In this document: piece by piece, positions 35,039 to 42,641 of the stretch | Position numbering within the stretch: position 1 is the stretch's first letter | Layout of the letters: each line of letters starts with the position of its first letter | NCBI GenBank assembly: GCA_000004695.1 | Contig: CM000151.3 | Location: 1,152,001-1,216,000, forward strand | DNA: 64,000 nucleotides | Direction of reading: 5' to 3' | DNA from: Dictyostelium discoideum | Taxonomy: Eukaryota | Position numbers and translations under genes: made by a program | The notes under the pieces: generated by a model | What the model saw: only the letters and a program-made list of their open reading frames with translations | What the model was told of the DNA's origin: nothing | Database searches by the model: none

Positions 35039-37145
35039 TTATTTTACATTTAAAATATATTCCTCCATATTAAGAAAGTTGATAGAACCCAAACCTGTAT
35101 AATTTTATGTATTATTTTGAAAAAAAAAAAAAAAATTAATAAAAAAGATTAAAAAAAAAAAAACAAAAAAAAGAAAAGGAAGACTTACCAGTAGCGGGGT
35201 CATAACCAACAGCAGCAGAGAAACCATATTGGCAACAATAGGCTCTATTACAATTTATATTACCAGTAACAATGTCATTAAATACATTTGGTTGTTCCTG
35301 AGCAGCTTGATATAGTAATGGATTTAAGAAACCTAATTGTGATTTTCCTGCTGATAGTAGTTTATCATTTATCAATGCAAAAATACCAGCAACTGTAGGT
35401 GTTGAGGCAGAAGTACCATCTACATTAATTAAACCACATGGACAACTATCAAGTGATGAATCATTTGCTGAATAACCAATAGAATATTTATGAGCCACCA
35501 ATGAGATATCAGGATATGCACGTTTAGTTGGATCAAATGAAAATGATGGCGGTAGATTTTCAGCAGTTTCAAGATATTTAGCAACTGCAACTACTTGGTA
35601 ATATGGTTGAGATTGGGTTACTGCAAAACCACCACCTGACGTTACAGCTGCACCAGTGGAAGATGAACATACTATTTCATCTGGTTGGTTAGTAATAATT
35701 TGAGTTGCACCAACTGATGTAACATATGGTGAACTTGTTGGATATTGTGGTGAAAATAGTGAACCTGCATTTTCATCAAAACTATATCCTATAATTTTAA
35801 TTCCAAGTTCATCATTACTTGTTGGTATTAAATTTTCACACGAACAACTTGAATATAGATGAGGATTTTGTGAAAAATCTTCCTCAATACTCAAATCACA
35901 TTGCCAATTAGTTTTAATAAATTCATTAACTGCATCAACAAAACTTTGATTACTAAATAAAATACCTGTATTTGCCCCAATACCCTATGTCAATTAAAAA
36001 TATTAATAAATTATTAAATTACTATTATTATAATAATTATTTAAAAAATTATAATTACATTTGGGAAAATTGCAAGTGAACCATTGGATTGAATTATAGT
36101 TATTGATGGGCATTGAGTTATTGTATGATTACAACCACCGAGCGGACAATAATGATTTAAACCATCAATTGGGCAATTGCCTGAAGTTGAATAAAAAGAA
36201 GTAGAACCATCATCACCACTACTAACGAATATTGTTGTACCACGTAAACCAATCTTTTGAAATTCAATATTTGATCTTTGGATATAAATTTGGGAGTCAA
36301 TACCAAGTGTTGGACAAAATGAAGTTGCTTGACACTGTTCTAATTCAGCCCAACTATAAGATATTGATGCAATCTTTGGTATTGGATTAAATAATTGAAT
36401 CGATGATGCCCAATCTAAAACCCATTCGCCATTACCAGATGAAAGGAATAATGTAGATATATTATTACCAATTGCTGTAATGTATTGAATATCTAAATCA
36501 CTCTCTGCCTGGCCACAATAGTTTAATCCAAAACAATTAGGTCCGGAATTGTTTACTCTAATACTTGATGAGTCAATATTATATTCTGAATCGAAATAAC
36601 CTAATGCGCCAGCGGAATAGAAATCATTAAAAGATGCAACTGAAATAGAATTATTTTCATTTTCACCAACTTGATTGAAAGGTATACCATAATAGGATTT
36701 AATAAATGATGGTGTAATTGTAACGAATGAATCCTTTACATCAATTCTTGATTTAAACATTGTTTCATAGAATTTATTATCTTCAATGAAATCCGATAAA
36801 CCTAATATAAAATCAATTTTATTTTTTAAATACTTTGGAATTGATGCTGATTCAACAATTCTAATTCTTTGATCTAAACTATTTCTTATTGATTGATAAT
36901 ATGCGAATTCCGTTTCAAATAAATTTGATGCTTTCATAACATTTATTCTTAATTGAATAAAATCTGAATGAACCATCATTTCTTCTTTACCAATATCATT
37001 ACTTTTTAACCAATTTACAACTGTTTTGACATCTTCATTACTTGGAGAAACTAATAAATTTATTTCTTCTAAACTCATAAATTTACCATATATTTTACTT
37101 TTTGGATTTGATACTTCCCAAAATTTATTTTCTAATAAATCGAGA

Positions 37146-37209
<64 letters not shown>

Positions 37210-37413
37210 TAAATAAAAATAAATAATAAATCAATTAATGAAATTTACCTGTTTTAGAAAAATTTTAAATTTTAATTCTTCATTTTCTGTTACAAATTCC
37301 TTTTGAATAAAATTTACTCTGTTTTCGACTCTAGATATTGTTAAACGTTTTGCGCTTATAATATAAACAATTAAAAAAAAAATAACAATTATTGGTTTTA
37401 TTTGAATTATCAT
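35039..37413 (-). CDS. Sedolisin / tripeptidyl-peptidase I (peptidase S53) with signal peptide and propeptide, about 702 aa. Four exons: 37413..37249, 37150..36059, 35984..35189, 35094..35039.
   Basis: The signal peptide is MIIQIKPIIVIFFLIVYIISA. The S53 catalytic Ser motif is GTSASTPTVAGIFALIND, with upstream SVGATQ and the Asp/Glu-region motifs. The C-terminal GYDPATG|LGSINFLNMEEYILNVK parallels human TPP1 [23 protein letters not shown]. Introns are GTAAAT, GTAATT and GTAAGT with AG acceptors, phases 0/0/1. Confidence 0.8.
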
Positions 37414-37649
37414 TTTTTTTTTTTTTTCTATAAATTTATGTATGTCATGAAGATCTTTGTTTTTAGTTATAAAAAATAAAAAAATAATAAAATTTTAAAA
37501 AAAAAAAAAAAAGTAAGCAACCTGGTCAAAAAAAAAAAAAAAAAAAAAAAAAACCAAAATAAAAATATCTTTCAAATAAAAATAATTATCCTGGTTTTTT
37601 TAAAGTTTAAAATGAAATTTTAAGTAATTTATTTATTCAATAAAATTTT

Positions 37650-38482
37650 TTAATTTCCGAAATATCTTGATGGTCTTGGACATTCACGTGACCATCCTTT
37701 TTGACATAATGGAGTGACACCCCAACCAGTTTCAGCTTGGTTACAAACGCTTGGGAAGAAAGTATCAGTAATATTATCTAAGACACCACCAATAACAACG
37801 ATGTTGTGGTTGATACCATAACCTAATTTGAAGATTTCATTTGAGTCCATTGGTAATTGATTGAAACAACGTTCACAATACATGTTTGAAACGTATGAGG
37901 CAAAGATAACTTTTTGGAATTTAGTCCACATAATAGCAGCAGAGCACCTAAAAATTATTTTTTAAAATTATTAAATTAGTAAGATAAATAAATAAATAAA
38001 ATCATTAAAATAAAAAATATTTACATTGGACATGGTTCACCAGTAGTGTACAATGAATAGTCTTCCCAGGTGGCTTGTTGATACATAGTAGTACAATTCA
38101 TGATAGCTTTAACTTCACCATGATACATTCTTGAACCACCAACGTTAACACCAGTACAGGCAACAGTACCATTTTTGTGGACGATTGCAGCAGCAAATTT
38201 GGAGTTATTTTCAATGGCAATATCAATTGCAATTTGCATATATTTTGAATGGTAAGCTAATTCGGCGGCTGATAAATCTTTAGCATGAGTAATATCAGAC
38301 TAATGGAAAATTAAATAATTAATAATCAATTTTTATTTTATTTTATTTTTTTTTTTTTTGTCAAAATAAATACATACTGGAGCTACATCAAAGTATGGTG
38401 ATGATGGGCATTTTGAGTGATCAGCAAATACTGATGAGAATGAAAGGGTGACTAATAATAATACAAATAAAAATAATCTCAT
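37650..38482 (-). CDS. Cytidine/dCMP deaminase-fold (CDA) zinc enzyme with a predicted N-terminal signal peptide, about 225 aa. Three exons: 38482..38378, 38299..38025, 37947..37650.
   Basis: The signal-like N-terminus is MRLFLFVLLLVTLSFSSVFA. The zinc motifs are HGEVKAI (H-x-E) and TTGEPCPM|CSAAIMW (PCxxC), and the latter is split by a phase-2 intron (GTAAAT..TTTTAG). Codon usage is C-ending-rich (ACC, GGT, TTC), which suggests a well-expressed gene. Exon junction coordinates are +/-1 nt. Confidence 0.65.
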
Positions 38483-39465
38483 TTTATTTTTTTGTTTATG
38501 ATTTTAATGTTACAAATTTAATGTTGGTAATGAAAAAAATATAAAAAAAAACTTTCCTTTTTATACACTTTTTTTTTCTTTTTTTTTTTCTTTTTTTCAT
38601 ATTTTTTTAATTATTTTAACAAAAAAAAAAAAAAAAAAAAAAAAAAAGAAAATTATAATAAATAAATATCTTAAAAAAAAAAAAATCTTTATTGTCTATT
38701 TTTCCGACCATTAATAATATTTTTATTATTATATTACTTATTTTTTTATTGATTTATTTTTTATTTTTTTCTTTTTAATTTTCCTTTATTTTTTTTTATC
38801 TGTTCGTTTATTGGGGGAAATTATCACCAATCTCTTTTAAAAAAAAATAATTTGCGAACGAAATCAATTGATTCCAGTGTGTCTCTTTTCGAAATGATAA
38901 ATCTTTGCAACGAGATTAAAAATCAAACCGACCAATCATTTTCACAAAGAAAAACTTTTTTATCCGAATAATAAAGAAAACTATAAGATTTATTTCAGAT
39001 ATTTTTTAAAACAGTTTTTTTTTTTTTCTAAAATTTTTATTTTTTATTTTCATACTATCAGAAAAATTAAGAAATCTTTTTTTTGAAATTTTGGATGACA
39101 AAAAAAAAAAAATAAAATAAAAACAAAATAAAATAAATTTACCAAATGATTGTTTTCAAAAAAAAATTTAAAAAAAAAAAAAAAAAATCAGATATTAAAT
39201 TTCGTGCTTTTTCGAATATTAACCAATCAAACCTAACGAGTTCGCTCGTTTTTTTTTCTGAAATAAAAAAAAAAAAAAGAAACAAAATCGTTATTTGTCC
39301 ACGTTGTCTGAAATTTTAGTTTATGCTGTACAAGTTTGAGTAAATATATATATTTTTTTTTTTAATCATTTTTCTTGAATCATTCTTTTTTTTTTTAATC
39401 ATTTTTCTTGTATCATTCTTTTTTTTTTTCAAAGAAAAAGGTTCATCGTTCGATTATTATTTTTG

Positions 39466-39529
<64 letters not shown>

Positions 39530-39532
39530 GTT

Positions 39533-39563
<31 letters not shown>

Positions 39564-39982
39564 TTTGATAACGTGGTGAAGGATTTGAAGTTGTTCACTT
39601 AATCTAAAATTTCCAAAACTAAACTTTGATGCATTAGTATTTGTAATCGAGAATGGATTATATGTTGGTTTAGTTGAAAATAGACCTCTATTTATCTATA
39701 TTAACTAATTTATTTAATTTACAAATTTTTTTTTAAATGTTTATTTATCTATTTATTCAACATATTTTTTGTTAAATAATAAAATAAAAATAACCACTAA
39801 AATTGATTAATTAACCATTGTTTTTGAATTTTATCAATTGTATTTTTTTTATAACATCATTAATGCCATTAAACTCATGTTACTTTTTTAAAAGTATTTG
39901 CTCTTTTTTTTAAGGTTTTTTTATTAAAATTGGGAGATTTTGAAGAATTATCAGGAACATATAATCTATCATTTGGTGAACA

Positions 39983-41465: not shown

Positions 41466-42641
41466 TTATTTTGGTAGAGAACCTTCTAAAGCTAATAAAG
41501 AAAGGGGATGAATTGGTTTGTTTTTATCAACATAATTGAACCAAATTGTTGGTTCTTTACCACGTAAATTGAATGACGTTAATTGATCTAGTGGCACATA
41601 AATAGCGCCCATACTTTCATAATTTGGAATGAGACGAGGTGGTTGATTTTCATCGATTGGTTCAGCATAAAAAATGACACGCATTCGTGAGTAATTAACC
41701 ATTGGACTAAATTCCACTCTGAGTATACCTTTTAATTCAATGTCAATACCAGTTTCTTCTTTTGTTTCTCTGATAGCACATTGTTGTAAAGCTTCATTAA
41801 CATTTAATTTTCCACCAGGTAACCAATACCCACGACCTGCAGCTTCATTGACTAATAAATAAGTATTATTTGATCTTTTTCTAACTACAACCAAACAAAA
41901 TGCATATATTTTTGAGAGTGATAATTGCTTTTCAGTTGGTGCACCTTTTTCACCATGAGATTCATGTAAATGAACACCCATTCTTTCCATTGGTCTAATA
42001 TTACAAATTGGACATAACGGTATTGAATTTTCAATATCATTTAATGAACAATTACAATGAAATATGAAAATATGTTCCCTAAGATGATCTTGGGATAAAT
42101 TTGTTGCAAATCCACTCTTATGACAAATTGTACATTTAAAATCACCAGATTTATCAATTGATGTAGTTTCAACGATTTTCAATGACTCTATAACATCATT
42201 GATTTTATTTGTAACTAATGAACTACCATTTTTAAATAATTTACATAGAAACATTGGGAATAATTTATCATTAATTTCATCTCTTCTTTTAGATTCCATT
42301 GAAATAGTTGAGTCGTCAATATCAATAAAAGTAACAATGAATGAATTCATTTTTCTCTTTTCTCTATATTCCACAATTGTTTTAGTTTTATTATCTATGA
42401 ACTCCATAATAGAACTCTCATTTGAACTTACTTGTTTATCTATTAAAATATGAATTAAAATTGCAACAATTGGATAATCACTTTTATATTCATTTAATAT
42501 TTTATTAGTTTCATTTTCATCACTACTCTTTATTATCTCTTTAAATTTTCCTTGTTTTAAAAAATTATTTAAAAAATTATCTTTTTGATCTTTTGAACTT
42601 TCTTTATTTGAAAAAAATATTGATTCAATTAATAATGACAT
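41466..42641 (-). CDS. Nudix hydrolase with N-terminal C2H2/C4-type zinc-finger region, single exon, 391 aa
   Basis: The Nudix box is GGKLNVNEALQQCAIRETKEETGIDIE (Gx5Ex7REUxEExGU). The upstream Cys/His cluster is CTICHKSGFATNLSQDHLREHIFIFHCNCS..CPICN. The ATG is at 42641. Confidence 0.75.
   Translation of the reverse strand: MSLLIESIFFSNKESSKDQKDNFLNNFLKQGKFKEIIKSSDENETNKILNEYKSDYPIVAILIHILIDKQVSSNESSIMEFIDNKTKTIVEYREKRKMNSFIVTFIDIDDSTISMESKRRDEINDKLFPMFLCKLFKNGSSLVTNKINDVIESLKIVETTSIDKSGDFKCTICHKSGFATNLSQDHLREHIFIFHCNCSLNDIENSIPLCPICNIRPMERMGVHLHESHGEKGAPTEKQLSLSKIYAFCLVVVRKRSNNTYLLVNEAAGRGYWLPGGKLNVNEALQQCAIRETKEETGIDIELKGILRVEFSPMVNYSRMRVIFYAEPIDENQPPRLIPNYESMGAIYVPLDQLTSFNLRGKEPTIWFNYVDKNKPIHPLSLLALEGSLPK

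Follow-up and report, generated by a model that had tools for sequence, protein, structure and literature searches.

Secreted AID/APOBEC-like deaminases (AADs) were described in C. fasciculata, T. lacteum and Acytostelium by Krishnan et al. 2018 (PMC5889660). In that article, the dictyosteliid AADs are presented as a lineage-specific expansion, with copies arranged in tandem in both C. fasciculata and T. lacteum, and are stated to be, together with the SNADs, the only secreted eukaryotic deaminases. Dictyostelium also has a folate deaminase, secreted as well as present at the cell surface, which destroys chemoattractant folate and underlies self-generated folate gradients; in 2021 it was described as known from its biochemistry but still uncloned (PMC8616412), and no later cloning report was found in the literature searched. 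Here we examine DDB_G0272030, a gene located at positions 37650..38482 (minus strand) of a 64,000-nucleotide stretch of the Dictyostelium discoideum genome (GenBank assembly GCA_000004695.1, contig CM000151.3, forward-strand positions 1,152,001 to 1,216,000), which is referred to here as the window. The gene is annotated only as hypothetical, and neither its identifier nor the UniProt identifier of its product is mentioned in the main texts of the literature searched. Our preferred reading, held with moderate confidence, is that the product is an active zinc-dependent extracytoplasmic deaminase of the TadA/GuaD/FCY1 branch that acts on a small amino-heterocycle.

An earlier, sequence-only reading of this locus had described a genuine spliced eukaryotic gene for a CDA-fold deaminase with a signal peptide and with intact H-x-E and PC-x-x-C motifs, the second of them interrupted by a phase-2 intron. 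This observation was confirmed in every detail. The gene is complete from ATG to stop, with three exons and two introns, as established by the splice model, an exact protein match and detection by mass spectrometry, and the spliced product of its 678 nt coding sequence (36 % GC; 225 aa) is identical to DDB_G0272030 (XP_645389.1, UniProt Q86JM0). Exon 1 (38378..38482, minus strand as are all parts of the gene; donor GTATGT) encodes aa 1–35, which include the signal peptide and a conserved cysteine, Cys25, and is followed by intron 1 (38300..38377), which is 78 nt long, in phase 0, bounded by GTATGT..TAG and only 10 % GC. Exon 2 (38025..38299) begins with aa 36, ends on base 2 of codon 127, and covers helix 1, beta1–3 (as placed in the structural model described below), the HGE motif and the first part of PCPMC. 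Intron 2 (37948..38024; 77 nt, phase 2, GTAAAT..TAG, 6 % GC) lies inside the latter motif, between PCPM and C, because exon 2 stops after base 2 of the Met127 codon. Exon 3 (37650..37947) encodes aa 127–225 and the stop codon, and carries Cys128, a family-specific SNMYCERCFNQLP segment, beta5 and a Cys-rich C-terminal extension. Read from the sequence, His95-Gly96-Glu97, which supplies a zinc ligand and the proton shuttle of catalysis, is encoded at 38114..38122 and Pro124-Cys125-Pro126-Met127-Cys128 at 38025..38035 (first 11 nt) and 37947–37944 (last 4 nt). The orthologue in D. firmibasis and XP_645425, a D. discoideum paralogue, also have intron 2, which is absent from D. purpureum. The D. 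purpureum orthologue has an intron at or near the position of intron 1 (a break between high-scoring segment pairs at aa 32/33), and D. firmibasis has none there.

The assignment to the CDA fold with an intact catalytic site held when the protein was compared with Pfam, as it matched PF00383 (dCMP_cyt_deam_1) over residues 52–143 with E=3e-18 and a score of 66 bits, where the cut-off is 25, a match well outside the reach of chance. Comparison with Pfam subfamily models had been proposed with the earlier assignment. The match to PF14437 (MafB19-deam), at 41 bits against a cut-off of 27 and below the PF00383 score, does not discriminate because E. coli TadA (138 bits) and GuaD (89 bits), used as controls, score higher on the same model. 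The residues H95, E97, C125 and C128 are unchanged in 72 of 72 aligned relatives, and the catalytic set formed by these four and N87 is invariant within the DDB_G0272030 orthogroup. An AlphaFold2 (AF2) model built from 72 sequences, which replaced a 12-sequence run that was poor outside the core (predicted local distance difference test score, pLDDT, 65.6), has the three-layer alpha/beta/alpha deaminase fold. About 139 residues can be aligned. Specific to the family are residues 21–45 at the N-terminus, the SNMYCERCFNQLP segment that follows beta4 and the last 35 residues.

The nearest solved proteins by sequence are yeast-type cytosine deaminase, B. subtilis GuaD, TadA and plant guanosine deaminase, with the best single-sequence match in the PDB being the yeast-type cytosine deaminase 8vll (E=5e-8). 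A profile of the 72-sequence family scored about 98 bits to TadA and to GuaD alike. In the structural comparison, the highest score was obtained with TadA (19.0), followed by ADAT3 (18.4), guanosine deaminase (16.9), the NE0047 guanine deaminase (16.0), yeast cytosine deaminase (15.8) and the ammeline-binding Msmeg3575 (15.7), while the APOBECs scored 6.9 or less and toxin deaminases 5 or less. On these comparisons DDB_G0272030 is a member of the TadA/GuaD/FCY1 clade and is not a cytidine or dCMP deaminase proper. Position 148 aligns with Asp114 of GuaD and Phe114 of yeast cytosine deaminase, which we take to be substrate-contacting residues. It is an invariant Asn in the orthogroup; elsewhere among the dictyostelid subfamilies it is D, T, K, F or H, and four of the other dictyostelid members have Asp. 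This variation across subfamilies would fit paralogues with differing substrates.

Export was judged by comparative tests. The N-terminus of the protein, MRLFLFVLLLVTLSFSSVFA followed by DH (signal peptide coding region 38423..38482), has a basic n-region, an h-region of approximately 13 residues (Kyte-Doolittle 2.9) and V/A at −3/−1, with cleavage predicted after Ala20, and there is no other hydrophobic segment in the protein. All 12 aligned dictyostelid homologues have a basic residue followed by a hydrophobic core of 12–15 residues (Kyte-Doolittle 2.9–3.6), and no second hydrophobic segment was found in any of the 12. Two further kinds of feature separate the dictyostelid proteins from the bacterial ones in an alignment (A2) of 22 dictyostelid, 4 other eukaryote-like and 46 bacterial members. 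All 22 dictyostelid and all 4 other eukaryote-like members have an Asn103-x-Ser/Thr sequon, which just 1 of the 46 bacterial members shares, and Asn78-Gly-Thr is present in 17/22 dictyostelid versus 0/46 bacterial members. Similarly, Cys151, Cys154, Cys195 and Cys208 are each found in 22/22 and Cys25 in 21/22 of the dictyostelid sequences and all five are missing from the 46 bacterial sequences. These sequons and cysteines are best read as marks of N-glycosylation and disulfide formation gained on a bacterial-type core. The signal peptide claimed earlier is therefore both predicted and conserved in every dictyostelid homologue examined, in company with the sequons and cysteines, and the predicted secretory routing of DDB_G0272030 is well supported by these comparisons.

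If the protein were not exported, it would be held by an uncleaved signal anchor or retained in the endoplasmic reticulum (ER), or it would start at an internal methionine such as Met56, which lies just ahead of the core deaminase domain, and be cytosolic. We regard this as very improbable. The first exon and the hydrophobic segment that it encodes are conserved in every aligned homologue, with a nonsynonymous substitution rate (dN) of 0 relative to D. firmibasis across the signal peptide. Cys25, conserved in the dictyostelid members as noted above, is upstream of Met56, and residues 21–45 are packed on the core in the AF2 model with a pLDDT of 86–92. The short h-region is below the length of a typical transmembrane anchor, and the C-terminus is not HDEL- or KDEL-like. 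A non-exported protein would also leave the eukaryote-specific sequons and cysteines unexplained.

Features of other family members also bear on location. Relatives in Cavenderia, Acytostelium, Heterostelium, Tieghemostelium and Synstelium have an end resembling a glycosylphosphatidylinositol (GPI) signal, namely a stretch of small residues followed by a hydrophobic tail, and a WSC carbohydrate-binding domain is fused to one metagenomic eukaryote-like relative. Tat-like (RR) or Sec-like signals were found in approximately 30 of the 78 closest bacterial homologues, including those most like the amoebal proteins; the literature search yielded nothing useful on experimental Tat export of the Streptomyces homologues. 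Two other types of C-terminus were seen. P0007, P0009, P0029 and P0034 have an acidic Ser/Asp tail (SDSDSD, SDSESD, SDSSDF), and members of the DDB_G0272030 orthogroup end in ...SRYFG[NFY]. The acidic, GPI-like and SRYFG[NFY] ends may represent three alternative C-terminal 'addresses' on one catalytic module.

In a life-cycle proteome published in 2026 (PMC12821622), DDB_G0272030 was detected in both replicates, in culmination (3.4e6 and 4.4e6) and fruiting bodies (1.7e7 and 2.7e7) only, and the paralogue DDB_G0282171 was detected in fruiting bodies only; nothing was found on the paralogues XP_645425 and DDB_G0272442. The late profile of DDB_G0272030 is shared by the spore-coat proteins cotB and pspB, and in that study extracellular region, matrix and spore coat are over-represented among the clusters with the late profile. 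The samples were whole cells washed twice, in which a soluble secreted protein of the single-cell stages would go unseen, and the late-only signal thus represents either late expression or retention in multicellular structures. DDB_G0272030 was not in the lists given in the DPF conditioned-medium supplements.

An abundance profile that parallels those of structural spore-coat proteins would also be expected of a spore-coat or matrix protein with a structural or binding role, in which the deaminase fold remains but catalysis is irrelevant. That the fold can be recruited to non-catalytic roles is suggested by a sister clade (P0045, P0046 and P0048, from Dictyostelium cf. discoideum and relatives), in which H-S-E is kept but PCPMC has become PDSLS, with loss of the PCxxC cysteines. 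These three are probably catalytically dead pseudo-deaminases that have retained the signal peptide; one member of the clade has a 200-residue low-complexity tail rich in His, Ser and Lys. A structural role for DDB_G0272030 itself appears most improbable, as every catalytic residue is invariant in the orthogroup and is under purifying selection.

The full-length family, with its Cys-rich extensions, was found only in Dictyostelia, where it occurs in all major groups with 46–71 % identity. D. discoideum has four apparently active copies, namely DDB_G0272030, XP_645425 (85 %), DDB_G0282171 (63 %) and DDB_G0272442 (approximately 60 %). The ratio of nonsynonymous to synonymous substitution rates for DDB_G0272030 was 0.12 when compared with the D. 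firmibasis orthologue and 0.21 when compared with the paralogue, and selection on the gene is strongly purifying. In T. lacteum, KYQ90026–KYQ90028 (the P0044 cluster) are three consecutive tandem copies that are >90 % identical, with a fourth copy elsewhere. To judge from this arrangement, they are a recent local amplification, in contrast to the slow evolution of the D. discoideum orthogroup.

Uncharacterised proteins of bacteria, going by the name 'nucleoside deaminase', form the nearest outgroup; they come from Rhodospirillales, Streptomyces, Methylobacter and planctomycetes, as well as from the amoeba-associated Legionella, Coxiellaceae and Berkiella. An ancient bacterial origin of the dictyostelid family is plausible. 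Close relatives with Sec-like signal peptides were found in Legionella santicrucis (L013) and in metagenome-assembled genomes of a Coxiellaceae member (L019) and of Candidatus Berkiella (L046), and these could stem from genes passed between amoebae and the bacteria living inside them, whichever the direction. Among the bacterial loci the only recurrences were phoB/phoR in Methylobacter, which is specific to that lineage, and generic transport genes (TctC, MFS, ABC). At six to seven Methylobacter loci (L027, L032, L043, L045 and related loci), a signal-less cytosolic form is directly upstream of a phosphate two-component system of the phoB/phoR type, a pattern that may be lineage-specific synteny of closely related genomes.

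From the features of DDB_G0272030 and its relatives we infer cleavage, glycosylation, disulfide formation, true secretion, catalytic activity and a small-molecule substrate. In the proposed sequence of events, the 20-residue signal peptide would direct the protein to the ER and be removed after Ala20, N-glycosylation would probably occur at Asn78 and Asn103, and disulfides among the eight extra cysteines would stabilise the enzyme. Across the family C83 co-occurs with C104, and C151/C154 with the C-terminal cysteines C195 and C208, which suggests that these may be the pairs. The mature polypeptide has a calculated mass of 22.8 kDa, an isoelectric point (pI) of 6.1 and up to four sequons. An enzyme of approximately 23 kDa, possibly a dimer like its solved relatives, would be released and would build up outside the cells of culminants and fruiting bodies. 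Reasoning from the relatives, His95, Cys125 and Cys128 would hold a zinc-bound water and Glu97 would shuttle protons, while Asn87 and Asn148 would contact the ring. Oxygen would then take the place of an exocyclic amino group on the substrate, be it a purine, a pterin/folate or a pyrimidine base, and ammonia would be released.

Several points weigh against this reading. TadA, GuaD and yeast cytosine deaminase all lie equally far from the family, the closest structural match of which is formally a tRNA deaminase. In a search of NCBIfam no curated model claimed DDB_G0272030 or its relatives, the only matches being far-sub-threshold ones to TadA, ComEB, RibD and the anti-phage dCTP deaminase. The late-only signal in the proteome could be late expression or mere retention of a secreted protein. 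Finally, the survey of bacterial neighbourhoods revealed no conserved partner across the 78 loci, a result that also counts against a toxin/immunity architecture.

On the same strand as DDB_G0272030, an AT-rich spacer of 236 nt (37414..37649) separates it from the ATG, at 37413, of a gene for a sedolisin/TPP1-like peptidase (window 35136–37413, minus strand), which has several short introns. The product contains a Pro-kuma_activ domain (76 bits) and a subtilase-type catalytic domain, and has a hydrophobic N-terminus of its own, MIIQIKPIIVIFFLIVYIISA; its identifier was not among the proteome entries listed. On the other side (window 41466–42641, minus strand) is a gene for a 391 aa protein that has a NUDIX domain at its C-terminus and, in the middle, a region rich in Cys and His (CTICH...HIFIFHCNCS...CPICN). 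The sequence-only reading was right in placing a TPP1 gene about 240 bp away on the same strand. Its further suggestion, that the two genes are co-regulated, was not supported, as the NUDIX-deaminase-sedolisin order persists only in D. firmibasis (L087), a very close species, the D. purpureum orthologue adjoins fumarase and the D. discoideum paralogue is not beside a peptidase. Functional coupling to the TPP1-like gene is not supported beyond what any 236 nt tandem spacing allows. Of the earlier interpretation as a whole, the real gene, the deaminase fold and the conserved signal peptide stood, and the co-regulation with TPP1 was left without support.

The adjoining gene does bear on where in the secretory route the deaminase might end up, because sedolisin/TPP1-type peptidases are typically lysosomal, and the signal peptide, sequons and cysteines would suit any post-ER lumen equally. 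The deaminase could then be a luminal enzyme of lysosomes, phagosomes or prespore vesicles that, together with hydrolases such as the adjoining peptidase, recovers nitrogen or bases when bacterial nucleic acids are digested. As lysosomal enzymes of Dictyostelium are secreted too, the two fates are compatible. This location nevertheless seems unlikely to us. DDB_G0272030 was not detected in pellets of vegetative, feeding-competent cells, in which an enzyme residing in lysosomes should be present, but only in culmination and fruiting bodies, the GPI-like tails and WSC domain of family members point to the surface or exterior, and the adjacency to the peptidase gene is not conserved.

The base composition of the window (approximately 22 % GC, with poly-Asn and poly-A tracts) is typical of Dictyostelium. 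The flanks of the gene (window 37480–37560 and 38560–38660) contain homopolymer runs of 20–30 consecutive A or T, and a long TTA/AAT-type repeat at window 39408–39602 reads as poly-Leu or poly-Asn open reading frames. Both are the usual kind of sequence between Dictyostelium genes and do not represent genes. In the window neither the deaminase nor the sedolisin gene has a second copy, and no tRNA genes were found.

One candidate substrate is suggested by the biochemistry of Dictyostelium. It is possible, although we consider it doubtful, that this family supplies the secreted and cell-surface folate/pterin deaminases of the organism, through DDB_G0272030, XP_645425, DDB_G0282171 and DDB_G0272442. 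DDB_G0272030 would then be a late-developmental isoform acting in the fruiting body, and catalysis would be by a CDA fold rather than an amidohydrolase fold. Folate and pterin deaminases remove the 2-amino group from a 2-amino-4-oxo ring, which is the chemistry of guanine deamination, known for CDA-fold enzymes. They have several kinetic forms, for which the several paralogues found here could account. They are also secreted and surface-bound, and a signal peptide is predicted in all members of this family. PMC4794234, citing Bernstein 1981, gives the size of folate deaminase as approximately 40 kDa, and this is compatible with a glycosylated dimer of 22.8 kDa subunits (approximately 46 kDa before glycans). 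Pterin deaminase activity is recorded for D. discoideum, P. violaceum and D. lacteum in PMC13197243, and the family was found in all three. Other evidence points the other way. While GPI-like tails occur in other dictyostelids, a search among the D. discoideum copies revealed no GPI-type paralogue, and DDB_G0272030 was seen only late, whereas folate deaminase is abundant in growing cells. In addition, all pterin deaminases with known genes are amidohydrolases (PMC13197243), a fold unrelated to the one found here. That known type, with its distorted (beta/alpha)8 barrel and mononuclear metal centre, was rejected for this protein, as the fold here is the alpha/beta/alpha fold of the CDA type.

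Folate deaminase underlies much of the current work on self-generated chemotactic gradients, and four signal-peptide-bearing, guanine-deaminase-like genes provide a short list of candidates for this orphan enzyme. Ammonia and purine derivatives are signals in spore dormancy and late morphogenesis. Should the substrate be a different one, for instance a purine, cytokinin-like compound or pyrimidine in the sorus, ammonia released beside the spore coat and matrix would bear on these processes. Whichever substrate applies, confirmation of our reading would place beside the SNADs and AADs a different, well-conserved extracytoplasmic lineage of the CDA fold, the nearest relatives of which are uncharacterised bacterial deaminases, many with Tat-like signals.

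When compared with the described members of its clade, DDB_G0272030 differs from TadA and ADAT2, which have an HAE motif in place of HGE and do not share its signal peptide, sequons and eight extra cysteines. Identity with TadA was rejected, as the NF008113 equivalog model gave 29.5 bits against a cut-off of 150, and the paralogues and bacterial relatives scored 20–55 bits on the same model. TadA has a conserved GARDAKTGAAGS segment after beta4, where the aligned segment of DDB_G0272030 is the Cys-containing ASYVSNMYCERC. TadA also has a long basic C-terminal helix, whereas in the model of DDB_G0272030 the helix after beta5 spans only residues 184–190 and gives way to a Cys-rich coil. Both of these parts of TadA have a role in RNA binding, the helix touching the anticodon loop, as in the structure 2b3j. 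In our reading DDB_G0272030 does not edit tRNA or other nucleic acid, since the RNA-binding elements of TadA are missing and the mature protein has a pI of 6.1. Moreover, DDB_G0272030 is predicted from its signal peptide, sequons and cysteines to be extracytoplasmic, and tRNA is therefore not a plausible substrate. A small molecule is favoured over nucleic acid as the substrate because these elements are missing, because the protein is not basic and its evolution is constrained, and because in bacteria the relatives stand alone as exported enzymes, with transport and metabolic genes around them, and are not in toxin cassettes.

The CDA-fold guanine and guanosine deaminases (GuaD, 1wkq; Nitrosomonas NE0047, 2g84; Arabidopsis GSDA, 7dbf) also have HAE rather than HGE, and they differ in that DDB_G0272030 is predicted to be exported and rich in disulfides. 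The region of GuaD that is C-terminal to beta4 could not be aligned with DDB_G0272030, and no counterpart of the domain-swapped C-terminal Tyr of the GuaD type could be identified. The unusual HGE motif and an '..NC' after the catalytic helix are held in common with the yeast cytosine deaminase FCY1 (yCD), a free-base deaminase of similar size. The two differ at the position of yCD Phe114, which is Asn148 here, and in the zinc motif, which is 'SPCDMC' in yCD and 'EPCPMC' in DDB_G0272030, and the alignment stops short of the C-terminal gating residues of yCD (Trp152/Asp155). Furthermore, yCD is cytosolic and is without the extra cysteines. We place DDB_G0272030, which is very likely exported, in a putative extracytoplasmic branch of the TadA/GuaD deaminases adapted by glycosylation and disulfides.

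The resemblance to the secreted SNADs and dictyosteliid AADs is more general and comprises membership of the CDA superfamily, predicted signal peptides and Cys-rich C-terminal parts; like the AADs, the present family has multiple copies in C. fasciculata and T. lacteum. A secreted nucleic-acid deaminase directed against bacteria, viruses or competitors, analogous to these proteins or to a toxin, would share such features, but we think it rather improbable that DDB_G0272030 is one. The AAD family models matched none of the members tested, the AAD structures are not the closest neighbours and evolution is not of the arms-race type, and membership of the AADs was rejected for these reasons. Assignment to the SNADs was likewise set aside, as the TadA and GuaD controls gave the same weak SNAD4 match. 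A polymorphic toxin of the MafB19 type was rejected because this is a standalone 225 aa protein and the model was non-specific with the same controls. The present family occurs in both D. discoideum and D. purpureum and evolves slowly. We infer that it is a distinct, undescribed secreted lineage, separate from the AADs of Krishnan et al. 2018, with which it was compared by their description.

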